Below are positions 14,297-26,754 of a stretch of DNA of 29,860 bases, piece after piece (within the stretch, counting starts at the first letter, position 1; each line of letters begins with the position of its first letter). Under the pieces are notes generated by a model. That model worked only from the letters and a program-made list of their open reading frames with translations, did not search any database and was not told the origin of the DNA. The DNA is taken from the IMG/VR virus record IMGVR_UViG_2703718820_000019. The stretch is one strand, 5' to 3'. The stretch comes from a virus. Its lineage: Duplodnaviria; Heunggongvirae; Uroviricota; Caudoviricetes. A program made the translations under genes and the position numbers.

Positions 14297-14722
14297 ATGA
14301 AGAAATTATCCCTTTCACTGATGCTGAACGTGTCGCTGGCGCTGATGCTGGCACTGTCCCTGATTTACCCGCAGAGCGTGGCCGTCAATTTTGTCGCCGC
14401 CTGGGTGATTCTGGCGACGGTTATCTGTGTGGTTGCCGGTGGTGTCGGCGTGTATGCCACTGAGTATGTGCTGGAACGCTACGGGCGGGAGCTGCCGCCG
14501 GAATCGCTGGCAGTGAAGATTGTCGCGTCGCTGTTTTTGCAGCCGGTGCCGTGGCGCAGACGGGCGGCGGCTCTGGTGGTGATGGTGGCAACGTTTATCT
14601 CGCTGGTCGCTGCCGGGTGGATTTTTACCGCGCTGATTTACCTCGTGGCGTCGGTGTTCTTCCGGCTGATACGCACGGCCTGTCGTCAGCGTTTTGAGGG
14701 GCGGGAACCATGTCAAAGCTGA
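14297..14722 (+). CDS. lysA: LysA lysis-timing membrane protein
   Basis: 141-aa polytopic hydrophobic protein after K, as P2 LysA. SD GGAG upstream. Confidence 0.85.
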   Translation: MKKLSLSLMLNVSLALMLALSLIYPQSVAVNFVAAWVILATVICVVAGGVGVYATEYVLERYGRELPPESLAVKIVASLFLQPVPWRRRAAALVVMVATFISLVAAGWIFTALIYLVASVFFRLIRTACRQRFEGREPCQS

Positions 14723-15135
14723 TGATTGTGCTGGTTGTGTTGTTATCACTGGCGGTGGCCGGTCTGTTTCTGGCGAAGCATGAAAACGCCAGCCTGCGCA
14801 CCTCGCTGGACAGGGCGAACAACGTCGCCAACGGGCAGCAGACGATCATCACCATGCTGAAAAATCAGCTTCATGTTGCCCTCACCAGAGCAGACAAAAA
14901 CGAGCTGGCGCAGGTGGCACTGCGTCAGGAACTGGAGAACGCGGCGAAGCGTGAAGCACAGCGCGAGAAAACCATCACGAGGTTACTGAATGAAAACGAA
15001 GATTTTCGCCGCTGGTACGGCGCTGGCCTGCCTGATGCTGTGCGCCGGTTGCACCAGCGCCCGGCCTGCACCGACGCCAGTGATTGTCGCCAACGCCTGC
15101 CCGAAAGTGAGCCTTTGCCCGATGCCGGGCAGTGA
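14710..15135 (+). CDS. lysB: LysB, i-spanin (Rz-like)
   Basis: 141 aa with an N-terminal transmembrane anchor followed by a charged, coiled-coil-like periplasmic region. Confidence 0.85.
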   Translation: MSKLMIVLVVLLSLAVAGLFLAKHENASLRTSLDRANNVANGQQTIITMLKNQLHVALTRADKNELAQVALRQELENAAKREAQREKTITRLLNENEDFRRWYGAGLPDAVRRLHQRPACTDASDCRQRLPESEPLPDAGQ

Positions 15136-15280
15136 CCCGGAGACGAACGGCGATTTAAGTGCCGATATCCGACAGCTTGAGAACGCGCTGGCACGCTGTG
15201 CCAGCCAGGTAAAAATGATTAAACACTGTCAGGACGAAAACGATGCTCAAACCCGACAGCCTGCGCAGGGCGCTGACTGA
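14990..15280 (+). CDS. lysC: LysC, o-spanin lipoprotein (Rz1-like), overlapping lysB in another frame
   Basis: 96 aa; signal peptide with lipobox (LCAGC), proline-rich. Starts inside lysB in a different frame and runs past its end into R, the P2 LysB/LysC arrangement. Confidence 0.8.
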   Translation: MKTKIFAAGTALACLMLCAGCTSARPAPTPVIVANACPKVSLCPMPGSDPETNGDLSADIRQLENALARCASQVKMIKHCQDENDAQTRQPAQGAD

Positions 15281-15710
15281 TGCCGTCACGGTGCTGAAAA
15301 CCAGTCCCGAGATGCTGCGGATATTCGTTGATAACGGGAGTATTGCCTCCACGCTGGCGACGTCGTTGTCATTCGAAAAGCGTTACACGCTCAATGTGAT
15401 TGTGACCGACTTTACCGGTGATTTTGACCTGCTCATCGTGCCGGTGCTGGCGTGGCTGCGGGAAAATCAGCCCGACATCATGACCACCGACGCAGGCCAG
15501 AAAAAGGGCTTCACGTTTTATGCAGACATCAACAATGACAGCAGCTTTGATATCAGCATCAGCCTGATGCTGACCGAGCGCACGCTGGTCAGTGAGGTGG
15601 ACGGCGCACTGCATGTGAAGAATATCCCGGAACCCACGCCGCCGGAGCCGGTCACCCGCCCGATGGAGCTTTATATCAATGGCGAACTGGTGAGCAAGTG
15701 GGATGAATGA
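15243..15710 (+). CDS. R: Tail completion protein R
   Basis: 155 aa, the P2 gpR length; conserved position. Confidence 0.9.
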   Translation: MLKPDSLRRALTDAVTVLKTSPEMLRIFVDNGSIASTLATSLSFEKRYTLNVIVTDFTGDFDLLIVPVLAWLRENQPDIMTTDAGQKKGFTFYADINNDSSFDISISLMLTERTLVSEVDGALHVKNIPEPTPPEPVTRPMELYINGELVSKWDE

Positions 15711-16155
15711 GTTTAAGCGTTTTGAAGACCGGCTGACCGGACTGATTGAATCGCTGTCACCGTCAGGGCGTCGGCGACTGAGCGCCGAACTGGCGAAACG
15801 TCTGCGGCAGAGTCAGCAGCGTCGGGTGATGGCTCAGAAAGCCCCGGACGGCACACCCTACGCACCACGCCAGCAGCAGAGCGCCAGAAAAAAGACTGGT
15901 CGTGTTAAGCGAAAAATGTTTGCGAAACTTATCACCAGTCGTTTTTTGCATATCCGCGCCAGCCCGGAACAGGCATCAATGGAGTTTTACGGCGGGAAGT
16001 CACCGAAAATCGCCAGCGTGCATCAGTTCGGTCTGTCGGAAGAAACCCGGAAAGACGGTAAGAAAATTGATTATCCGGCGCGTCCCCTGCTCGGCTTTAC
16101 CGGTGAGGATGTGCAGATGATTGAAGAGATTATCCTGGCTCACCTCGACCGTTAG
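15703..16155 (+). CDS. S: Tail completion protein S
   Basis: 150 aa, the P2 gpS length; start overlaps the R stop. Confidence 0.9.
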   Translation: MNEFKRFEDRLTGLIESLSPSGRRRLSAELAKRLRQSQQRRVMAQKAPDGTPYAPRQQQSARKKTGRVKRKMFAKLITSRFLHIRASPEQASMEFYGGKSPKIASVHQFGLSEETRKDGKKIDYPARPLLGFTGEDVQMIEEIILAHLDR

Positions 16156-16221
16156 TTGTGCCATTCCTGACACCTCATCGTCACATTGCCGCCGGTATGA
16201 CCCGGCGGCATCCTTCCCGTT

Positions 16222-16857
16222 ATGAACACTCTCGCAAATATTCAGGAACTCGCGCGCGCACTGCGCAACATGATCCGCACCGGCATTATCGTCGAAACCG
16301 ACCTTAATGCTGGTCGCTGCCGTGTGCAGACCGGCGGCATGTGCACCGACTGGCTTCAGTGGCTGACCCATCGCGCCGGTCGTTCGCGCACATGGTGGGC
16401 ACCTTCCGTGGGGGAACAGGTGCTGATTCTGGCCGTGGGCGGTGAACTCGACACGGCGTTCGTTCTGCCGGGGATTTATTCCGGCGATAACCCCGCGCCG
16501 TCTGCGTCGGCGGATGCCCTGCATATCCGTTTCCCTGACGGGGCGGTGATTGAGTATGAACCTGAAACCAGCGCACTCACGGTAAGCGGAATTAAAACAG
16601 CCAGCGTGACGGCTTCTGATTCTGTTACTGCCACGGTGCCGGTGGTCATGGTGAAAGCATCAACCCGCGTCACCCTGGACACACCGGAGGTGGTCTGCAC
16701 CAACAGGCTGATTACCGGCACGCTGGAAGTGCAGAAGGGCGGGACGATGCGCGGCAACATTGAACACACCGGCGGTGAACTCTCATCAAACGGTAAGGTA
16801 CTGCACACCCATAAACACCCCGGCGACAGCGGCGGCACAACCGGGAGTCCTCTATGA
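16222..16857 (+). CDS. V: Baseplate spike / assembly protein V
   Basis: 211 aa, the P2 gpV length; conserved position. Confidence 0.92.
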   Translation: MNTLANIQELARALRNMIRTGIIVETDLNAGRCRVQTGGMCTDWLQWLTHRAGRSRTWWAPSVGEQVLILAVGGELDTAFVLPGIYSGDNPAPSASADALHIRFPDGAVIEYEPETSALTVSGIKTASVTASDSVTATVPVVMVKASTRVTLDTPEVVCTNRLITGTLEVQKGGTMRGNIEHTGGELSSNGKVLHTHKHPGDSGGTTGSPL

Positions 16858-17201
16858 CAGCGCGTTATCTCGGAATGAATCGCAGTGATGGCCTGACGGT
16901 CACTGACCTCGAGCATATCAGCCAGAGTATCGGCGATATCCTGCGCACACCAGTCGGCTCACGGGTGATGCGTCGTGATTACGGCTCGTTGCTGGCGTCA
17001 ATGATTGACCAGCCGCAGACCCCGGCGCTTGAGTTGCAGATTAAGGTCGCCTGTTACATGGCGGTGCTGAAATGGGAACCCCGCGTCACCCTGTCATCCG
17101 TCACCACTGAGCGCAGTTTTGACGGGCGAATGACGGTCACGTTAACCGGCCAGCACAACGACACTGGCCAGCCACTTTCGTTAACCATCCCTGTGAGTTG
17201 A
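16854..17201 (+). CDS. W: Baseplate protein W (gp25-like)
   Basis: 115 aa, the P2 gpW length; ATGA overlap with V. Confidence 0.92.
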   Translation: MTARYLGMNRSDGLTVTDLEHISQSIGDILRTPVGSRVMRRDYGSLLASMIDQPQTPALELQIKVACYMAVLKWEPRVTLSSVTTERSFDGRMTVTLTGQHNDTGQPLSLTIPVS

Positions 17202-17205
17202 AACC

Positions 17206-18114
17206 ATGCCGATTATCGACCTGAACCAGCTACCCGCACCGGATGTGGTCGAGGAGCTGGACTTTGAAACCATTCTTGCCGAACGCAAGGCGACACTGAT
17301 TTCCCTTTACCCGGAAGACCAGCAGGAGGCGGTCGCCCGTACCCTGACGCTGGAATCCGAGCCTCTCGTCAAACTGCTGGAGGAAAATGCGTATCGCGAG
17401 CTTATCTGGCGTCAGCGTGTGAATGAGGCTGCACGGGCGGTGATGCTGGCCTGTGCAGCCGGTAATGACCTTGATGTGATTGGTGCCAATTACAACACCA
17501 CGCGCCTGACTATCACCCCGGCAGATGATTCGACTATCCCGCCGACACCGGCAGTGATGGAGTCTGACACCGATTATCGTCTGCGTATTCAGCAGGCGTT
17601 TGAAGGCTTAAGCGTCGCCGGGTCGGTGGGAGCCTATCAGTATCATGGTCGCAGTGCCGACGGGCGTGTCGCGGATATCTCTGTCACCAGTCCGTCTCCG
17701 GCCTGTGTCACCATCTCTGTGCTGTCACGTGAAAATAACGGTGTGGCATCTGAAGACCTGCTGGCGGTGGTGCGCAACGTCCTGAATGGCGAGGACGTCA
17801 GACCGGTGGCCGACCGTGTGACCGTGCAGTCTGCCGCCATCGTTGAATACCAGATAAATGCCACGCTTTACCTTTACCCTGGCCCCGAAAGCGAACCCAT
17901 TCGCGCTGCCGCCGTGAAAAAACTGGAAGCGTATATCACGGCACAGCACCGGCTGGGGCGCGACATCCGACTGTCTGCCATTTATGCCGCTTTGCATGTG
18001 GAGGGCGTGCAGCGTGTCGAGCTGGCCGCACCACTGGCCGACATCGTGCTCAACAGTACGCAGGCGTCTTTCTGTACCGAATACCGCGTCGTGACCGGAG
18101 GCTCGGATGAGTGA
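17206..18114 (+). CDS. J: Baseplate protein J
   Basis: 302 aa, the P2 gpJ length; conserved position. Confidence 0.92.
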   Translation: MPIIDLNQLPAPDVVEELDFETILAERKATLISLYPEDQQEAVARTLTLESEPLVKLLEENAYRELIWRQRVNEAARAVMLACAAGNDLDVIGANYNTTRLTITPADDSTIPPTPAVMESDTDYRLRIQQAFEGLSVAGSVGAYQYHGRSADGRVADISVTSPSPACVTISVLSRENNGVASEDLLAVVRNVLNGEDVRPVADRVTVQSAAIVEYQINATLYLYPGPESEPIRAAAVKKLEAYITAQHRLGRDIRLSAIYAALHVEGVQRVELAAPLADIVLNSTQASFCTEYRVVTGGSDE

Positions 18115-18718
18115 TTCGCGCCTGCTGCCGACCGGCTCATCACCACTTGAAGTCGCCGCCGCAAAAGCCTGTGCGGAAATTGAAAAAACGCCGGTCAGTA
18201 TTCGTGAGCTGTGGAACCCGGATACCTGCCCGGCAAATCTGCTGCCGTGGCTGGCGTGGTCATTTTCGGTCGACAGGTGGGATGATAAGTGGCCGGAAGC
18301 GACAAAACGCGCTGTTATCCGCGATGCGTATTTCATTCACTGCCATAAGGGCACTATTGGTGCGATTCGCCGTGTGGTGGAGCCGCTCGGCTATCTGATT
18401 GAGGTGAGGGAGTGGTGGCAGCTCAACGAGGAGCCGGGGACGTTCCGTATCGTTGTCGGCGTGCTTGAGCAGGGTATTACCGAGGAAATGTATCAGGAGC
18501 TGGAGCGCCTCGTTGCTGATGCAAAACCGGCAAGCCGCCATCTGACGGGACTGGCTATCAGTTTAAGTACAACCGGCAACATTTTTGCCGGTGCGGGATG
18601 CTATCACGGTGACGCCCTGACGGTTTATCCCTACACTCCGGAGGCCATTATTGTCGGAGGGGATTATTTCCCGGCCTCGGCCATTCATTTAATTGATAAC
18701 CTGAGAGTAAACGCATGA
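18107..18718 (+). CDS. I: Baseplate protein I (tail-fibre attachment)
   Basis: 203 aa; the N-terminal part matches P2 gpI as I remember it (MSDSRLLPTGSSPLEVAAAKACAEIE...); the C-terminus is longer than P2's 176 aa. Confidence 0.9.
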   Translation: MSDSRLLPTGSSPLEVAAAKACAEIEKTPVSIRELWNPDTCPANLLPWLAWSFSVDRWDDKWPEATKRAVIRDAYFIHCHKGTIGAIRRVVEPLGYLIEVREWWQLNEEPGTFRIVVGVLEQGITEEMYQELERLVADAKPASRHLTGLAISLSTTGNIFAGAGCYHGDALTVYPYTPEAIIVGGDYFPASAIHLIDNLRVNA

Positions 18719-20514
18719 CAGTGAAATACTACGCCATTCTGACTAATCAGGGCGCAGCACGGCTGGCTAACGCGACGATGCTCGGCAGTAAGCTGAATCT
18801 GACGCAAATGGCCGTTGGTGATGCGAATGGTGTCTTGCCGACACCAGACCCGGCACAGACAAAACTGATTAACCAGAAACGCATCGCGCCGCTGAATCTT
18901 CTGAGTGTTGACCCGAACAACCAGAGCCAGATTATTGCGGAGCAAATCATCCCTGAGAACGAGGGTGGATTCTGGATCCGTGAGATTGGGCTTTATGATG
19001 ATGAAGGCGTACTCATTGCGGTGGCGAACTGCCCGGAAACGTACAAACCGCAGTTGCAGGAAGGCAGCGGTCGTACCCAGACTATCCGCATGATTCTGGT
19101 TGTCACGAATACCGAAGCCATCACGCTGAAAATCGACCCGTCGGTGGTACTGGCGACCCGTAAATACGTGGATGATGAAGTCCTGGAATTAAGGCTGTAT
19201 GTGGATGACCAGATGAGAAACCACATTGCTGCACAGGATCCTCATACCCAGTATGCACAGAAACATAATCCGACATTTACCGGAGAACCAAAAGCGCCGA
19301 CGCCTGCCGCAGGAAATAACACCACGCGGATTGCGACCACTGCGTTTGTTCAGGCCGCTATTACCGCTCTGATTAACGGTGCGCCAGCCACGCTGGACAC
19401 ACTGAAAGAAATTGCCGCAGCCATTAACAATGACCCGAAATTCAGCACCACCATTAACAATGCGCTGGCACTGAAAGCGCCGCTGTCGAGTCCCGCACTT
19501 ACCGGAACGCCAACAGCACCTACTGCGGCACAGTCGGTCAACAATACACAGATTGCCACCACGGCTTTTGTGAAATCAGCAATTGCGGCAATGGTGGGTT
19601 CTGCCCCTGCGGCACTGGATACACTGAATGAACTGGCGGCGGCGCTGGGGAATGACCCTAACTTTTCAACAACAGTGCTTAATGCACTGGCAGGCAAACA
19701 ACCGCTGGACAATACGCTTACTAATTTGAGTGGAAAGGATGTTGCTGGTCTTCTCGCATACCTTGGTTTGGCTAATTACGCAGACAAAGCAAGTCTGGCG
19801 AATCAGGAGTTTTCTGGTCCCGTATCATCTAAAGACTGCGTTACCGCAACATCGGCAGATGGGGTAACCCGCAAAGTATCGCTTAATGCCAGTACGGGTT
19901 TGAAGATAGTTATTTATGATGGCGGAACTTACAAGGGGGCAATAAACATCCCGGCAAAAGACGGGACAATGGCACTTGTATCTGATTTGGCTAATTTTGC
20001 TGATAAATTGAGTGCTTCTGAGCAATATTTTAAAGGACCTGTTTCATCCGGGGATGGGCTCATAGCAAAATATGGCACCGCAAAAATAATTCTGTCAGCC
20101 CAAAACGGTCAGAGAATTGTTGTTTATACAAACGACACTTACCGTGGAGCTATTAATATTCCACTTCGTGACGGAACTATGGCGCTCCTGGATGATGTTA
20201 CTAATGTTAGCGCAACGCTGCTGGGTATATCTCAGTCATGGCAGAACGTGAAAGCCAGCCGTAGTGCCGGGGTTACGTATACCAACTCAACAGGCAGGCC
20301 CATTGCAGTTTCAATCGCCGGAATAATGGCAACACGTCAGAATGGAGTTCAGTTGTCACTTGCCGTTAATGGCACAGAGGCTTCAAGTTTTGCCGTGACT
20401 GACAGCTCGTTTGACATCAGGGGTAACGTATTTGCGATTGTGCCACCAGGAGCAACTTACAAACTTACAGCAAATAACATTAATTCTATTTTGACCTGGT
20501 CGGAGCTTCGCTAA
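18715..20514 (+). CDS. H: Tail fibre protein, chimeric: P2-H-like N-terminus with a divergent AT-rich distal (receptor-binding) region
   Basis: 599 aa (P2 gpH is 669 aa). The N-terminal ~200 aa are P2-H-like; the region from about 19700 onward drops in GC content and contains tandem protein repeats. Confidence 0.9.
   Translation: MTVKYYAILTNQGAARLANATMLGSKLNLTQMAVGDANGVLPTPDPAQTKLINQKRIAPLNLLSVDPNNQSQIIAEQIIPENEGGFWIREIGLYDDEGVLIAVANCPETYKPQLQEGSGRTQTIRMILVVTNTEAITLKIDPSVVLATRKYVDDEVLELRLYVDDQMRNHIAAQDPHTQYAQKHNPTFTGEPKAPTPAAGNNTTRIATTAFVQAAITALINGAPATLDTLKEIAAAINNDPKFSTTINNALALKAPLSSPALTGTPTAPTAAQSVNNTQIATTAFVKSAIAAMVGSAPAALDTLNELAAALGNDPNFSTTVLNALAGKQPLDNTLTNLSGKDVAGLLAYLGLANYADKASLANQEFSGPVSSKDCVTATSADGVTRKVSLNASTGLKIVIYDGGTYKGAINIPAKDGTMALVSDLANFADKLSASEQYFKGPVSSGDGLIAKYGTAKIILSAQNGQRIVVYTNDTYRGAINIPLRDGTMALLDDVTNVSATLLGISQSWQNVKASRSAGVTYTNSTGRPIAVSIAGIMATRQNGVQLSLAVNGTEASSFAVTDSSFDIRGNVFAIVPPGATYKLTANNINSILTWSELR
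19315..19740 (+). repeat. Tandem ~75-codon repeats within H (NNTxIATTAFV...APAxLDTLxExAAAxxNDPxFSTTxxNALAxK), two copies
   Basis: Copy 1 starts at 19315, copy 2 at 19540 (period 225 nt); the repeat is visible in the translation. Confidence 0.7.
19768..20205 (+). repeat. Tandem 73-codon repeats in the H distal domain (LANxADK...GPVSS...IVxYxxxTYxGAINIPxxDGTMAL), two copies
   Basis: Copy 1 starts at 19768 (LANYADKA...), copy 2 at 19987 (LANFADKL...); period 219 nt, about 45-50% amino-acid identity, in the AT-rich part of H. Confidence 0.7.
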
Positions 20515-20891
20515 TGAATACGGTAATCAAAGAGCAAAAATTCTTTAAGGACTCGGCCGGTGTGATTTTTTGCATCGACATCATGGAAATGAATGCTGAG
20601 TCATGGGGTGAAGAAGTACAGGCCGGATGGCAGGAAATTAGTGCCGATGAAGCGCTATTAATTGCTAATCCACCGCCTACAGAGGAACAGCTATTTGAAC
20701 AGGTTAGGGCGCAGAAACAGGCCCTGATTTCCGAGGCGACTGCAATTATAGATCCACTTAAGGATGCACTGGATGGTGGCTATATCGACGATGCAGACAA
20801 ACCAAGACTGACTGAATGGCAAAAGTACCGCTATGAGGTGACGAAAGTTGATCCGGGAAAACCTGTGTGGCCACCGAAGCCTACAGAATAG
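20514..20891 (+). CDS. G: Tail fibre assembly chaperone (Tfa-like)
   Basis: 125 aa, overlapping the H stop (TAATG); acidic, ending ...PVWPPKPTE, typical of Tfa-family chaperones. Shorter than P2 gpG (175 aa). Confidence 0.8.
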   Translation: MNTVIKEQKFFKDSAGVIFCIDIMEMNAESWGEEVQAGWQEISADEALLIANPPPTEEQLFEQVRAQKQALISEATAIIDPLKDALDGGYIDDADKPRLTEWQKYRYEVTKVDPGKPVWPPKPTE

Positions 20892-20961
20892 GAACGTTTA
20901 AGAAAATGCAGAGATTACGGCTAACTGGCATCATCTCCGGTTTTTATTCAGGGGATCCATC

Positions 20962-21555
20962 ATGCTTATTGGCTATGTCCGCGTATCAACAAATGACCAG
21001 AACACGGAATTGCAGCGTAACGCGCTGGAGTGCGCAGGATGTGAGCTGATTTTTGAGGACAAAATCAGCGGCACGAAGTCCGACAGACCGGGACTGAAAA
21101 AACTGCTCAGGACATTATCGGAGGGGGATACACTGGTAGTCTGGAAGCTGGACCGGCTGGGGCGTAGTATGCGGCATCTGGTCATTCTGGTTGAGGAGCT
21201 GCGCGAACGCGGCATTAATTTTCGCAGCCTGACGGATGCCATTGATACCAGCACGCCGATGGGGCGTTTTTTCTTTCATGTGATGGGTGCCCTGGCTGAA
21301 ATGGAGCGAGAACTCATTGTCGAGCGGACACGCGCCGGACTGGAAGCGGCCAGAGCTAAAGGTCGTATTGGTGGCAGACGTCCGAAACTCACCGCGAGTG
21401 AGTGGGAGCAGGCCGGGCGGTTGCTGGCTGCAGGGGAATCACGTCAACGCGTGGCACTGATTTTTGATATTGGCCTGTCCACGCTCTATAAAAAATTCCC
21501 CGCCTCAGTGACAAAAAATAAATTGTGTCATCCCTTAGCCAACCGGGACAAATAG
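20962..21555 (+). CDS. pin: Pin/Gin/Hin-family serine DNA invertase
   Basis: 197 aa; N-terminal catalytic motif GYVRVSTNDQ (serine nucleophile), resolvase/invertase core and C-terminal HTH. Closely resembles e14 Pin as I remember it. Sits at the P2 Z/fun position between G and FI. Confidence 0.9.
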   Translation: MLIGYVRVSTNDQNTELQRNALECAGCELIFEDKISGTKSDRPGLKKLLRTLSEGDTLVVWKLDRLGRSMRHLVILVEELRERGINFRSLTDAIDTSTPMGRFFFHVMGALAEMERELIVERTRAGLEAARAKGRIGGRRPKLTASEWEQAGRLLAAGESRQRVALIFDIGLSTLYKKFPASVTKNKLCHPLANRDK

Positions 21556-21614
21556 CCTGACATCTCCGGCACAACTGAAAATATCACTCACCCATTAACC
21601 ACGGAGTTAAACGG

Positions 21615-22805
21615 ATGAGTGACTATCATCACGGCGTGCAGGTGCTGGAGATTAACGACGGCACCCGCGTCATTTCCACCGTATCCACTGCCATTGTCGG
21701 CATGGTCTGCACGGCCAGCGATGCGGATGCGGAAACCTTCCCCCTCAATAAACCGGTGCTGATTACCAATGTGCAGAGCGCAATTGCAAAGGCCGGTAAA
21801 AAAGGCACGCTGGCGGCATCGTTGCAGGCCATCGCCGACCAGTCAAAACCGGTCACCGTTGTCGTGCGTGTGGAAGACGGCACCGGCGACGACGAGGAAA
21901 CGAAACTCGCGCAGACCGTTTCCAATATCATCGGCACCACTGACGAAAACGGTCAGTACACCGGACTGAAAGCCCTGCTGGCGGCGGAGTCGGTAACCGG
22001 TGTTAAACCGCGTATTCTTGGTGTGCCGGGGCTGGACACCAAAGAGGTGGCTGTTGCACTGGCATCAGTCTGTCAGAAGCTGCGCGCTTTCGGATATATC
22101 AGCGCATGGGGCTGTAAAACCATTTCCGAGGTGAAAGCCTACCGCCAGAATTTCAGCCAGCGTGAGCTGATGGTCATCTGGCCGGATTTCCTCGCATGGG
22201 ATACGGTCACCAGTACCACCGCCACCGCGTATGCCACCGCCCGTGCGCTGGGTCTGCGTGCCAAAATCGACCAGGAGCAGGGCTGGCATAAAACGCTGTC
22301 CAACGTCGGGGTAAACGGTGTTACCGGCATCAGCGCATCTGTATTCTGGGATTTGCAGGAGTCCGGCACCGATGCTGACCTGCTTAACGAGTCAGGCGTC
22401 ACTACGCTGATTCGCCGCGACGGTTTCCGCTTCTGGGGTAACCGTACCTGCTCTGATGACCCGCTGTTCCTCTTTGAAAACTACACCCGCACCGCGCAGG
22501 TGCTGGCCGACACGATGGCTGAGGCGCACATGTGGGCGGTGGACAAGCCCATCACCGCAACGCTGATTCGCGACATCGTTGACGGCATCAATGCCAAATT
22601 CCGTGAGCTGAAAACAAACGGCTATATCGTGGATGCGACCTGCTGGTTCAGCGAAGAATCCAACGATGCGGAAACCCTCAAGGCCGGAAAACTGTATATC
22701 GACTATGACTATACCCCGGTGCCTCCTCTCGAAAACCTGACCCTGCGCCAGCGTATTACCGATAAATACCTGGCAAATCTGGTCACCTCGGTTAACAGCA
22801 ATTAA
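21615..22805 (+). CDS. FI: Tail sheath protein
   Basis: 396 aa, the P2 gpFI length; conserved position. Confidence 0.95.
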   Translation: MSDYHHGVQVLEINDGTRVISTVSTAIVGMVCTASDADAETFPLNKPVLITNVQSAIAKAGKKGTLAASLQAIADQSKPVTVVVRVEDGTGDDEETKLAQTVSNIIGTTDENGQYTGLKALLAAESVTGVKPRILGVPGLDTKEVAVALASVCQKLRAFGYISAWGCKTISEVKAYRQNFSQRELMVIWPDFLAWDTVTSTTATAYATARALGLRAKIDQEQGWHKTLSNVGVNGVTGISASVFWDLQESGTDADLLNESGVTTLIRRDGFRFWGNRTCSDDPLFLFENYTRTAQVLADTMAEAHMWAVDKPITATLIRDIVDGINAKFRELKTNGYIVDATCWFSEESNDAETLKAGKLYIDYDYTPVPPLENLTLRQRITDKYLANLVTSVNSN

Positions 22806-22817
22806 GGAGCCTGACCG

Positions 22818-23336
22818 ATGGCAATGCCGCGCAAACTCAAGTTAATGAACGTCTTTCTGAACGGCTACAGCTATCAGGGCGTTGCAAAGTCCGTCACGCT
22901 GCCAAAACTGACCCGTAAGCTCGAAAACTATCGCGGTGCGGGGATGAACGGCAGCGCACCGGTAGACCTCGGCCTTGATGACGATGCGCTGTCAATGGAG
23001 TGGTCGCTCGGTGGCTTCCCGGATTCGGTTATCTGGGGGCTTTACGCCGCAACCGGTGTGGATGCCGTGCCGATTCGTTTTGCAGGCTCTTACCAGCGCG
23101 ACGATACCGGCGAAACGGTGGCCGTCGAGGTGGTCATGCGTGGACGTCAGAAAGAAATCGACACCGGCGAGGGCAAACAGGGAGAAGACACCGAGTCGAA
23201 AATCTCCGTGGTCTGCACCTATTTCCGGCTGACGATGGACGGTAAGGAGCTGGTCGAAATCGACACCATCAACATGATTGAGAAGGTGAACGGCGTCGAC
23301 CGGCTGGAGCAACACCGCCGCAATATCGGCCTGTGA
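22818..23336 (+). CDS. FII: Tail tube protein
   Basis: 172 aa, the P2 gpFII length; SD AAGGAG upstream. Confidence 0.95.
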   Translation: MAMPRKLKLMNVFLNGYSYQGVAKSVTLPKLTRKLENYRGAGMNGSAPVDLGLDDDALSMEWSLGGFPDSVIWGLYAATGVDAVPIRFAGSYQRDDTGETVAVEVVMRGRQKEIDTGEGKQGEDTESKISVVCTYFRLTMDGKELVEIDTINMIEKVNGVDRLEQHRRNIGL

Positions 23337-23392
23337 TTTTCATCCGGTCAGCCTGGCTGACCGGTTAACCCCGATTCAGAAGTGAGAAAACC

Positions 23393-23668
23393 ATGAACAA
23401 AGAAAACGTCATTACCCTGGACAATCCGGTCAAACGTGGTGAGCAGGTTATCGAACAGGTCACGCTGATGAAACCCAATGCCGGGACGCTGCGCGGTGTC
23501 AGTCTGGCTGCAGTCGCGAACTCCGAAGTCGATGCACTGATTAAAGTGCTGCCGCGCATGACGGCACCGATGCTGACCGAGCAGGAAGTCGCCGCGCTGG
23601 AACTGCCTGACCTTGTGGCGCTGGCCGGTAAGGTGGTCGGTTTTTTGTCGCCGAACTCGGTGCAGTGA
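23393..23668 (+). CDS. E: Tail assembly chaperone E
   Basis: 91 aa, the P2 gpE length; ends just after a T-rich slippery sequence. Confidence 0.9.
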   Translation: MNKENVITLDNPVKRGEQVIEQVTLMKPNAGTLRGVSLAAVANSEVDALIKVLPRMTAPMLTEQEVAALELPDLVALAGKVVGFLSPNSVQ

Positions 23669-23820
23669 CGTTTCCGAAAAATCTCTCGGTCGATGACCTG
23701 ATGGCGGATGTGGCAGTGATATTTCACTGGCCGCCATCAGAACTGTATCCCATGAGCCTGACCGAACTCATCACATGGCGCGAAAAGGCGCTCCGGCGAA
23801 GCGGAAACACGAATGAGTAA
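23393..23820 (+). CDS. E': Tail assembly chaperone E+E' (programmed -1 frameshift product)
   Basis: Slippery heptamer T_TTT_TTG at 23641-23647 near the end of E. The -1 frame is open from there to a TAA at 23818-23820, overlapping the T start. This is the conserved E/E' arrangement of P2 (analogous to lambda G/GT). Confidence 0.7.
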
Positions 23821-26260
23821 CAATGTAAAATTACAGGTATTGCTCAGGGCTGTTGACCAGGCATCCCGCCCGTTTAAATCCATCCGCACAGCGAGCAAGT
23901 CGCTGTCGGGGGATATCCGGGAAACACAAAAATCACTGCGCGAGCTGAACGGTCACGCATCCCGTATTGAGGGATTTCGCAAGACCAGTGCGCAGCTCGC
24001 CGTGACTGGTCATGCACTTGAAAAGGCACGGCAGGAAGCCGAAGCCCTTGCCACACAGTTTAAAAACACCGAACGTCCGACCCGTGCTCAGGCGAAAGTG
24101 CTGGAATCCGCAAAGCGAGCGGCGGAGGACTTACAGGCGAAATATAACCGCCTGACGGATTCCGTTAAACGCCAGCAGCGGGAACTGGCCGCTGTGGGAA
24201 TTAATACCCGCAATCTTGCACATGATGAGCAGGGACTGAAAAACCGTATCAGTGAAACCACCGCACAGCTTAACCGTCAGCGCGACGCGCTGGCGCGTGT
24301 CAGTGCGCAACAGGCAAAACTTAACGCAGTCAAACAGCGTTATCAGGCCGGAAAGGAACTGGCCGGAAATATGGCCTCAGTAGGCGCTGCCGGTGTGGGG
24401 ATTGCGGCGGCGGGAACGATGGCCGGAGTTAAGTTGCTGATGCCCGGTTATGAGTTTGCGCAGAAAAACTCAGAATTGCAGGCCGTGCTCGGAGTGGCAA
24501 AAGACTCCGCCGAAATGACCGCACTACGCAAACAGGCGCGCCAGCTCGGCGACAATACCGCCGCCTCGGCGGATGATGCGGCCGGTGCACAGATAATCAT
24601 CGCGAAAGCGGGTGGGGATGTTGATGCCATTCAGGCGGCAACGCCGGTCACGCTGAATATGGCGCTGGCGAACCGCCGCACGATGGAAGAAAACGCCGCC
24701 CTGCTGATGGGGATGAAATCCGCCTTTCAGCTTTCAAACGATAAGGTCGCTCATATCGGGGATGTTCTCTCCATGACGATGAACAAAACCGCCGCCGATT
24801 TTGACGGCATGAGCGATGCGCTGACCTATGCCGCACCTGTGGCAAAAAATGCCGGTGTCAGCATTGAAGAAACCGCCGCAATGGTCGGGGCGCTGCATGA
24901 TGCAAAAATCACAGGCTCAATGGCGGGGACGGGAAGCCGTGCCGTGTTAAGCCGTCTGCAGGCACCGACGGGAAAAGCATGGGATGCACTCAAAGAGCTT
25001 GGAGTGAAAACCTCAGACAGCAAGGGAAACACCCGGCCAATATTTACCATTCTGAAAGAAATGCAGGCCAGTTTTGAGAAAAACCGGCTCGGTACTGCCC
25101 AGCAGGCTGAATACATGAAAACTATTTTCGGGGAGGAGGCCAGCTCAGCCGCCGCCGTGCTGATGACTGCCGCCTCAACCGGAAAGCTGGACAAACTGAC
25201 CGCTGCGTTTAAAGCCTCAGACGGGAAGACTGCCGAGCTGGTAAATATCATGCAGGACAACCTCGGCGGTGACTTTAAGGAGTTTCAGTCCGCTTATGAG
25301 GCGGTAGGGACAGACCTGTTTGACCAGCAGGAAGGCGCACTGCGTAAGCTCACACAGACGGCCACAAAGTATGTGTTAAAACTCGACGGCTGGATACAGA
25401 AAAACAAATCACTGGCGTCAACCATCGGCCTCATTGTCGGTGGCGCGCTGGCGCTTATTGGCATCATCGGTGCCATTGGTCTTGTAGCCTGGCCGGTTAT
25501 CACCGGCATCAATGCCATTATCGCGGCAGCAGGCGCAATGGGGGCAATCTTCACGACGGTTAGCAGTGCTGTTATGACGGCCATCGGGGCGATTAGCTGG
25601 CCGGTTGTGGCCGTAGTGGCCGCCATTGTCGCCGGGGCGTTGCTTATCCGTAAATACTGGGAGCCTGTCAGCGCATTCTTTGGCGGTGTGGTTGAAGGGC
25701 TGAAAGCGGCATTTGCGCCGGTGGGGGAACTGTTCACGCCACTGAAGCCGGTGTTTGACTGGCTGGGTGAAAAGTTACAGGCCGCGTGGCAGTGGTTTAA
25801 AAACCTGATTGCCCCGGTCAAAGCCACCCAGGACACCCTGAACCGTTGCCGTGACACGGGCGTCATGTTCGGGCAGGCACTGGCTGACGCGTTGATGCTG
25901 CCGCTTAATGCGTTCAACAAACTGCGCAGTGGTATTGACTGGGTACTGGAAAAACTCGGTGTTATCAACAAAGAGTCAGACACACTTGACCAGACCGCCG
26001 CCAGAACTCATGCCGCCACGTATGGCACCGGTGGTTATATTCCGGCGACCAGCTCTTATGCAGGCTATCAGGCTTATCAGCCGGTCACGGCACCGGCTGG
26101 CCGCTCTTATGTGGACCAGAGTAAAAACGAATATCACATCAGCCTGACGGGTGGTACTGCGCCGGGGACACAGCTTGACCGCCAGTTACAGGATGCGCTC
26201 GAAAAATACGAGCGGGATAAACGTGCGCGCGCCCGTGCCAGCATGATGCATGACGGTTAA
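23813..26260 (+). CDS. T: Tail tape measure protein
   Basis: 815 aa, the P2 gpT length; coiled-coil N-terminal half and hydrophobic Gly/Ala-rich central segment. Confidence 0.95.
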   Translation: MSNNVKLQVLLRAVDQASRPFKSIRTASKSLSGDIRETQKSLRELNGHASRIEGFRKTSAQLAVTGHALEKARQEAEALATQFKNTERPTRAQAKVLESAKRAAEDLQAKYNRLTDSVKRQQRELAAVGINTRNLAHDEQGLKNRISETTAQLNRQRDALARVSAQQAKLNAVKQRYQAGKELAGNMASVGAAGVGIAAAGTMAGVKLLMPGYEFAQKNSELQAVLGVAKDSAEMTALRKQARQLGDNTAASADDAAGAQIIIAKAGGDVDAIQAATPVTLNMALANRRTMEENAALLMGMKSAFQLSNDKVAHIGDVLSMTMNKTAADFDGMSDALTYAAPVAKNAGVSIEETAAMVGALHDAKITGSMAGTGSRAVLSRLQAPTGKAWDALKELGVKTSDSKGNTRPIFTILKEMQASFEKNRLGTAQQAEYMKTIFGEEASSAAAVLMTAASTGKLDKLTAAFKASDGKTAELVNIMQDNLGGDFKEFQSAYEAVGTDLFDQQEGALRKLTQTATKYVLKLDGWIQKNKSLASTIGLIVGGALALIGIIGAIGLVAWPVITGINAIIAAAGAMGAIFTTVSSAVMTAIGAISWPVVAVVAAIVAGALLIRKYWEPVSAFFGGVVEGLKAAFAPVGELFTPLKPVFDWLGEKLQAAWQWFKNLIAPVKATQDTLNRCRDTGVMFGQALADALMLPLNAFNKLRSGIDWVLEKLGVINKESDTLDQTAARTHAATYGTGGYIPATSSYAGYQAYQPVTAPAGRSYVDQSKNEYHISLTGGTAPGTQLDRQLQDALEKYERDKRARARASMMHDG

Positions 26261-26274
26261 GGAGGTGACGAAAA

Positions 26275-26754
26275 ATGATGCTCGCGTTAGGTATGTTTGT
26301 TTTTATGCGCCAGACGCTGCCACACCAGACCATGCAGCGTGAATCAGATTATCGCTGGCCGTCAAATTCCCGTATCGGTAAACGGGATGCCTACCAGTTT
26401 CTCGGCGTTGGCGAGGAAAACATGACGCTGGCCGGTGTGCTTTATCCCGAACTGACCGGCGGCAAGCTGACGATGACCACGCTCAGGCTGATGGCAGAGG
26501 AAGGTCGGGCGTGGCCGTTGCTGGATGGCACCGGCATGATTTACGGCATGTATGTCATCAGCAGGGTGAGTGAAACAGGGAGTATTTTCTTTGCAGACGG
26601 CACACCCCGAAAAATTGATTTTACGCTGTCGCTCACCCGCGTTGACGAATCACTGGCAGCGCTTTATGGCGATATCGGTAAACAGGCGGAATCGCTCATC
26701 GGTAAGGCTGGCAGTATGGCGACTAAATTCACAGGTATGACGGGGGCGGGATAA
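26275..26754 (+). CDS. U: Tail protein U
   Basis: 159 aa, matching P2 gpU as I remember it; SD GGAGG 9 nt upstream. Confidence 0.93.
   Translation: MMLALGMFVFMRQTLPHQTMQRESDYRWPSNSRIGKRDAYQFLGVGEENMTLAGVLYPELTGGKLTMTTLRLMAEEGRAWPLLDGTGMIYGMYVISRVSETGSIFFADGTPRKIDFTLSLTRVDESLAALYGDIGKQAESLIGKAGSMATKFTGMTGAG

Follow-up and report, generated by a model that had tools for sequence, protein, structure and literature searches.

The DNA analysed here, IMG/VR virus record IMGVR_UViG_2703718820_000019 (29,860 nucleotides; the whole stretch is referred to as the window), is a nearly complete E. coli prophage of P2-like (Peduovirus) type in which an intact Pin-family serine invertase gene, pin, lies directly behind the tail-fibre gene H and the tail-fibre assembly gene G (tfa). 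We consider it probable that the invertible interior of a Pin/Gin-type module has been replaced at this locus by a foreign, non-invertible module encoding a fibre tip and its chaperone, here called X, and that the switch is now locked.

Judged by its sequence, the locus is most aptly called a locked derivative of an invertible fibre segment of the Din type, Din being the Hin/Gin/Cin/Pin family of serine invertases. It keeps a crossover site inside the fibre reading frame at the constant/variable boundary and an invertase gene adjoining the other site. However, it lacks two complete inverted 26-bp sites (12-2-12) flanking the segment, an alternate fibre C-terminus and chaperone on the opposite strand, and occurrence in both orientations among genomes, the 12 other copies of X all having one orientation.

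Anatomy of the locus

The main features, all on the plus strand, are as follows.

18715–20514, +: tail-fibre gene H, whole; Phage_tail_fib N-terminal domain
18715–19750, +: constant N-terminal part of H, native to the P2-like backbone (Pfam Phage_tail_fib, residues 1–150)
19751–19776, +: left crossover site, TTCTCGCATACC TT GGTTTGGCTAAT, encoding LLAYLGLAN
19772–20892, +: foreign one-way module X, comprising the variable C-terminal part of H (to 20514) and G/tfa; GC content 0.46; 100% identity elsewhere
20514–20891, +: G/tfa, tail-fibre assembly protein (Pfam Caudo_TAP)
20881–20906, +: remnant of the right crossover site, CTACAGAATAGG AA CGTTTAAGAAAA (central AA at 20893–20894, outer half at 20895–20906)
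20907–20961, +: pin leader, conserved (probable promoter, 5′ untranslated region and ribosome-binding site; the promoter role is presumed)
20962–21555, +: Pin-family (Din) serine DNA invertase, 197 residues, intact (Resolvase and HTH_7 domains)

By sequence comparison, Pin is a clear member of the Din family. Its 197 residues fall within the total length of about 185–200 residues used as a membership criterion; the Pfam Resolvase domain covers residues 3–135 (3e-52) and HTH_7 residues 138–181 (5e-13). The N-terminus MLIGYVRVSTNDQNT (MLIGYVRVST serine motif) is common to PinE of the e14 element and, apart from a GTG start, to Gin of phage Mu, with protein identities of 87.5% and 77.2%, respectively. 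Genes for Din invertases contain, in their 5′ part, a recombinational enhancer that depends on Fis. A strict Fis-consensus pattern matched once in pin (gene nucleotides 71–85, conserved in gin and pinE), and no second match was identified there at the expected spacing.

The exact Pin protein occurs in 929 blocks of a public collection, and every one of the ten places listed among them is a P2-like E. coli prophage. No fewer than nine of these ten have the order Hc–left site–Hv–tfa–(tfa′–Hv′)–right site–pin, with the primed genes on the opposite strand; the genes of the tenth (L020) are not listed, and its sites and 1804-bp segment fit the same two-cassette layout. In all, about a dozen relatives encoding the identical invertase have normal two-cassette segments, of 1.6–1.95 kb, and the two-cassette loci L019–L028 encode a protein 100% identical to Pin. 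At the DNA level, identity to L021 is 99.2% from the right site to the end of pin, and the pin region is 97–99% identical to the intact relatives. Their segments occur in both orientations: one of 1885 bp is found as its full-length reverse complement between L022 and L025, and 11 distinct intact relatives divide 5:6 relative to L019. PMC4272514 and PMC4134206 document that such segments invert in E. coli cultures.

The candidate site reported at 19751–19776 by a first-pass annotation of this DNA, at the point in H where the variable region begins, proved exact in position. Its sequence marks it as a true crossover site of the Din family where the constant and variable parts of H meet. In the 29.86-kb window, a degenerate pattern for 26-bp Din sites matched only here (0.01 matches expected by chance). 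Relatives with the identical invertase carry TTCTCGCATACC TT GGTTTGGGAGAA at the same position. The site is composite, with its outer half and core from the backbone and its last 5 nucleotides from the incoming module. A position weight matrix was derived from curated half-sites of the hix, gix, cix, pix, mix and bix types; on it, the outer half reached 12.9 bits, as against 3.0 bits for the inner half.

The right site shows the same asymmetry more strongly, with 12.4 bits for the outer half and 0.2 bits for the inner half. Of all 12-mers in the window, both outer halves rank among the highest-scoring 0.01%. The right outer half is an exact match to the half-site pattern on the minus strand and is native to the backbone, being identical to L020–L022 and L024 and one base from pixR of e14. 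The inner half, CTACAGAATAGG, is degenerate; it consists of the last codons and stop of G and lacks even the AAACC core. At this position the intact relatives have TTCTCCCAAACC AA CGTTTA[T/A]GAAAA, which is e14 pixR, a site tabulated in Table 3 of PMC3241671. The pin gene starts 56 bp beyond the remnant.

A second element, GGTTTTTATTCA, had been put at 20941–20952 and read as a crossover half-site just upstream of pin. Its true position is 20939–20950, and it scores 9.4 bits, but its would-be partner half scores −7.6 bits. Since it lies within the conserved pin leader and the real site lies further upstream (about 33 bp upstream of GGTTTTTATTCA in the intact relatives; 45 bp upstream in the window, where the true right half-site is found), GGTTTTTATTCA is leader sequence and not a crossover site. 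Scoring of the two proposed elements against curated sites supported the one in H, with its strong outer half, but left the second without a partner. A search for further Pin-type sites, confined to the window, returned the one full site and additional half-site matches at chance level; those at 1596 and 23667, with one mismatch each, were discarded.

The lack of opposite-strand fibre or chaperone reading frames, also pointed out in the first-pass annotation, was borne out by both open reading frame (ORF) listing and tblastn between the variable part of H and pin. The sole minus-strand ORF with a start codon inside 19777–20892 encodes 66 residues. Queries with seven alternate-cassette proteins of the relatives and with Mu U gave nothing significant on the minus strand inside the same interval.

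Origin of module X and its junctions

The GC content falls from 0.53 to 0.46 at the left crossover site, and the interior that begins there is foreign. Its 1121 bp (19772–20892) recur at 100% identity in three complete E. coli genomes, and 12 fetched loci differ from them by 0–2 mismatches. Eleven of these 12 belong to an unrelated prophage integrated at dusA, with a Mu-like baseplate, an e14-like StfP N-terminus and a recombinase 54.5% identical to Pin; this phage family normally has its own two-cassette segment (L038). Strains with the dusA prophage and X include JX21CE8, 23CRST027 and 23CRST031. The only independent X sequence in the P2/pin context, L014, is identical to the window.

More distant relatives of X (tfa 68–96% identical) occur in P2-like phages with the order H–tfa–FI and no invertase, and others in a Buttiauxella prophage. 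A scan of GTDB genomes with the tfa protein yielded distant relatives in Buttiauxella and Pluralibacter, a marginal match in Frigoribacterium and none other; the phage collection contained no similar cassette DNA. In all X-type relatives the fibre gene retains a box resembling a crossover site, such as TTCTTCAATACC TT GGTTTGACCTAT, encoding an LxxLGL-type motif, and TAGG AA CCTTTGAAAGAA directly follows the tfa stop. X is thus present in three backbone types, namely P2-like phages without an invertase, P2-like phages with Pin, and the e14/Mu-tail phage at dusA. On these comparisons, it is a natively one-way fibre-tip and chaperone module that circulates among several backbones and whose ends resemble crossover-site boxes. 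Because a 100% identical module exists in the unrelated dusA prophage and relatives exist in invertase-less P2-like phages, the interior was replaced and not eroded. The combination of P2/pin with X is rare, the H protein being present on only two contigs, and with 0 mismatches between the cassette and the donor type it looks very recent.

Both junctions can be placed precisely. H is 98–99% identical to H of the intact relatives as far as 19771, where homology between the window and these relatives ends inside the left site; backbone homology restarts at 20893, at the central AA of the right site. Compared with backbone and donor together, the left switch interval is ACCTTGGTTTGG, 12 bp that include the central TT, and the right one is AAC, 3 bp that include the central AA.

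Under the proposed replacement, the backbone would have retained the pin gene together with its leader, the left site's outer half and core, and the central AA and outer half of the right site. The incoming X would have supplied a weak left inner half, practically no right inner half and no alternate cassette, and H and G would consequently be fixed in the expressed orientation. The agent may have been an invertase of the Din family that used a weak “quasi-site” where X ends on its 3′ side, because both junction intervals hold the 2-bp crossover centre of a backbone site while the identity at the right junction is only 3 bp long. We regard this route as more likely than one through microhomology, weighed below.

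The orientation of X is uniform in every copy seen. It is the same in all 12 other copies, and with the window as the 13th this differs from the 5:6 division of the intact relatives (Fisher’s test, p = 0.0034).

A broader process may tentatively be suggested, in which Din invertases, besides flipping a resident segment, now and then exchange complete fibre modules between unrelated prophages residing in the same cell, which would amount to naturally occurring recombinase-mediated cassette exchange. Such exchange would use the in-frame LxxLGL crossover box and the conserved quasi-site (TAGG AA C-TTT...) at the 3′ end of one-way modules. The window would then be a fresh capture product, whose hybrid sites may still permit rare inversion (fibre-OFF) or further swaps.

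Alternative routes and the present state of the switch

Several observations weigh against replacement by an invertase followed by locking. In the dusA context, the right boundary of X lies about 20 nucleotides past the crossover centre of that backbone, which is no clean site-centre exchange. The native 3′ flank of X, AACCTTTGAAAGAA, resembles the backbone outer half at 10 of 14 positions, so the right junction could arise by microhomology-driven recombination without an invertase. If an invertase did once use the 3′ end of X, that end is not wholly inert. The orientation census comes mostly from the dusA context, with a different invertase, and includes one independent P2/pin sequence (L014). 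Furthermore, functional sites with a poor half exist: the poor half of hixR scores 1.5 bits and the outer halves of mix 4.5–7.7 bits. Given such working sites, sequence alone cannot prove the right site dead.

The first two of these points feed an alternative route, in which short-homology or microhomology recombination at the site-like boxes, by general recombination of host or phage and without invertase catalysis, produced the replacement. The left interval is a 12-bp exact match within an 18/21 match between donor and backbone, the flank AACCTTTGAAAGAA matches the backbone sequence AACGTTTAAGAAAA at the 10 of 14 positions mentioned, and the insertion in the dusA context is off-centre relative to the crossover point. 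Temperate phages do exchange DNA through relaxed homologous recombination, according to PMC3945230. The right junction, however, has an exact identity of only 3 bp, which is the crossover centre of the backbone site, and the crossover dinucleotide falls in both junction intervals independently. We rate this route as the less likely of the two, but as a serious rival. The reciprocal product expected from an exchange (a pix-type inner half joined to a dusA-type flank) was not seen, the flank being carried by only three X-bearing complete genomes.

Whichever route was taken, the invertase is intact; it appears to be orphaned and is probably still active, and an identical protein adjoins segments occurring in both orientations. 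One account of its persistence, raised in the first-pass annotation as action on a site elsewhere and compatible with a locked switch, is that it is kept for work elsewhere, on Din-type segments of other prophages (e14-like or other P2-like) or in a host function, in which case the local sites would not matter. There is a precedent in E. coli EC958 (PMC4134206): one segment there keeps inverting although its own invertase is truncated, from which trans action of prophage invertases was deduced. The right site of the intact relatives is identical to e14 pixR, and most complete E. coli genomes searched contain sequence like the constant region of e14 ymfQ/stfP. Trans action of Pin on other prophage segments of its host is plausible. 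As the reason why pin has been kept, it seems doubtful: the window offers no other target, with its one full site, and the recent look of P2/pin with X (0 mismatches to the donor type; H protein on two contigs) means that an intact pin requires no selective explanation.

Continued activity at the locus itself is improbable. Under such an ON/OFF switch, sites with one good half would still recombine and invert 19765–20892, fusing the constant part of H to ...LAYL-PIL-stop and leaving G unexpressed; the result would be an OFF state and not a choice between tips. The predicted inversion product is well defined, a tip-less fibre of the form H(1–350)-PIL-stop, and the inverted DNA would have the junctions ...CATACCTTCCTATTCTGTAGGC... 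and ...ATTAGCCAAACCAACGTTTAAG.... Invertase and leader are intact, each site has one strong half (12.9 and 12.4 bits), the central dinucleotides stand in inverted register (TT left, AA right) as in the intact relatives, and the poor halves of hixR and mix are tolerated. On the other hand, none of the 12 other X copies is inverted, while intact segments are found in either orientation about equally often. Of the four half-sites here, two are weak, compared with one of four in hix, and the right inner half is without its AAACC core. The predicted truncated fibre proteins of the inverted state were absent from a collection of 15 billion proteins in which the products of the observed orientation are present, and a tip-less fibre brings the phage no obvious benefit. 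IMG/VR gave 0 matches each for the predicted inverted junction and for the cassette end, and JGI metagenomes 0 for the cassette end, but these collections are without the element in either isoform, so their zeros say nothing on inversion. The most likely state, as far as the site sequences and the census allow, is a switch locked in the expressed orientation; rare residual inversion has a low probability.

Decay in place is very unlikely. An ancestor carrying X and an opposite-strand partner would have lost the partner and the right inner half by deletion, for example through invertase-mediated recombination of the right site with a quasi-site at the end of G; a right junction exactly at the crossover centre and the partly degraded alternate cassettes of some relatives, such as phage S164 with its truncated opposite-strand ORF, would suit such a history. 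However, no locus with X and a partner cassette was present in any collection searched, the last 29 bp of G bear no trace of a converging tfa, and the identical interior, including the TAGG-AA-C end, occurs at 100% in a different phage backbone. The end TAGG AA C-TTT is already present in relatives of X from phages without an invertase, so this junction sequence is older than the prophage studied here. Hence the description of the locus as a “locked or decayed inversion switch” holds in its first part, with an intact invertase and an absent alternate cassette, but “decayed” and “fossil” do not suit an interior swapped for a foreign module. The label “shufflon” was also misplaced: shufflons use the tyrosine recombinase Rci and many sfx repeats, and here the recombinase is of the serine Din/Pin type with a single full site of another type.

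Related systems and neighbouring features

The components of the locus (Pin, pix-type sites and the P2 late region) are all well known, and it is an unsurprising variant and no new kind of system. It illustrates modular fibre exchange at crossover sites, that is, movement of phage host-range modules, through a very recent fibre-tip replacement with a serine-invertase crossover centre in both junction intervals. If it is true that the invertase made the swap, site-specific recombination acts beside homologous recombination in driving tail-fibre mosaicism. An invertase adjoining fibre genes is no guarantee of phase-variable host range, and annotation pipelines should not presume an invertible segment from the invertase.

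The closest known arrangements are the two-cassette segments of P2-like prophages (EPEC, i.e., enteropathogenic E. coli, E2348/69; EC958 Phi2; L001 and L019–L028). They share with the window the backbone, the invertase protein, the slot between H/G and FI and both outer halves, but their segments measure 1.6–1.95 kb and occur in both orientations, in contrast to the 1.13-kb one-way foreign module. In the e14 P-segment of E. coli K-12, served by PinE at pixL and pixR, the crossover likewise lies inside the fibre ORF at the constant/variable junction and the invertase gene (87.5% protein identity) stands immediately downstream behind a similar leader; the right outer half of the window is one base off pixR, which the intact relatives carry exactly. 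Unlike the window, with its one cassette, no alternate genes and a right site without an inner half, e14 has stfP–tfaP facing tfaE–stfE between two complete sites, and inverts. The Mu G segment with Gin (77% identity) and the P1 C segment with Cin share the serine invertase family, the 12-2-12 sites and the Sc–site–Sv logic, but they carry S/U versus S′/U′ alternatives, of which the window has none.

Cin reportedly also acts at quasi-sites, in rare laboratory inversions or deletions described by Iida and Hiestand-Nauer in 1987. Recombination between a true site and a poor site sharing its central dinucleotide would yield a hybrid right site like that of the window, although the outcome proposed here is capture of a foreign cassette. 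Cin quasi-site events are cited in PMC4134206.

P2 proper has the same gene order and slot (H, G, Z/fun, FI) but holds fun(Z) there on the opposite strand and no invertase. The placing of the invertase at the Z/fun position by the first-pass annotation was correct, with H, G and pin directly before FI. The downstream features are these.

21527–21614, +: late promoter pF region for FI, near-identical to P2 (NC_001895)
21615–22805, +: tail sheath gene FI, right border of the Z/fun slot (Pfam Phage_sheath_1, Phage_sheath_1C and Gp18_domIII_N)

The window hardly differs from P2 between the annotated activator-binding site and the FI start codon. At 21518–21617, pin ends in ~13 codons (tail ...VTKNKLCHPLANRDK, which PinE lacks) that merge into the P2-like pF region. 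Most of the annotated activator (Ogr) binding site belongs to this near-identical region, and its homologue overlaps the final codons of pin, so the end of the pin ORF falls inside the upstream element of the FI promoter.

The prophage begins at its left end with the integrase (1–1011, minus strand), followed by the gpA replication gene, portal, terminase and late tail genes. The late genes reach D at 26754–27917, and a host cation-efflux gene starts at 28940. The stretch 14514–26891 recurs at 100% identity in contig AATNCO010000006.1 of the E. coli draft assembly GCA_012919405.1, and an E. coli RefSeq accession exists for the H protein.

The leader of pin is conserved in L001–L003 and L019. 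A pattern TGGCAT[C/G]AT...TTTTA...CAGG[G/A]G is common to the leaders of P2-like pin, e14 pinE and Mu gin (window 20907–20961; L019 4446–4500; e14, L030, about 6460–6514; Mu, L029, about 4038–4092). The recombinase leader of the dusA prophage shares it partly, without the TGGCAT box. The leader sequence is possibly an extended −10 promoter with a ribosome-binding site. A consensus sigma-70 scan of the region gave no promoter match in the leader, and promoter and terminator scans found nothing above background. A terminator-like hairpin at 20923–20942 was set aside, its complementarity not being kept in the relatives.

The only Pfam match for the whole H protein is the N-terminal Phage_tail_fib domain. 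Within its variable part, positions 19777–20160 (residues about 355–480) encode two tandem repeats of ~62 residues, ANYADKASLANQEFSGPVSS...GTMALVSDL and ANFADKLSASEQYFKGPVSS...GTMALLDDV.

Among the invertase-less P2-like phages (L032–L034, L040, L043, L044 and L006), the mid-H box reads TTCTxxAxTACC TT GGTTTGAC.... In L032–L034 and L040, TAGG AA CCTTTGAAAGAA is followed by a terminator-like hairpin; this 3′ box is retained though the tfa DNA diverges to about 70%.

The dusA family (L004, L005 and L009–L018 compared with L038 and L039) is characterized by a Mu-like baseplate, an e14-like YmfQ/StfP N-terminus, a 187-residue recombinase, DinI and an integrase. Its two-cassette form has the sites CTCTCGAAAACC TT GGTTTAGGAGAA and TTCGCCTAAACC AA CCTTTCAAATAT; in the single-X form, X also replaces ~20 nucleotides past the right-site centre.

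Two relatives of the pin family depart from the usual layout. In phage S164 (L002, ON239131; 2537–3913), the alternate cassette is partly degraded, with an opposite-strand ORF of 87 residues left, and the sites are the variants TTCTCGCATACC TT CAATTGGGAGAA and TTCTGCTAAACG AA CGTTTATGAAAA. By its sequence, S164 shows that genuine decay in place also happens in the P2-like pin family. In L003 (KC618326, “Escherichia phage P2” from O157:H43 T22), the right site at 4403–4439 is a perfect 25-bp inverted copy of the left site, left outer half included, after which come GACC and the usual outer half CGTTTATGAAAA. This arrangement looks like the footprint of site conversion or duplication.

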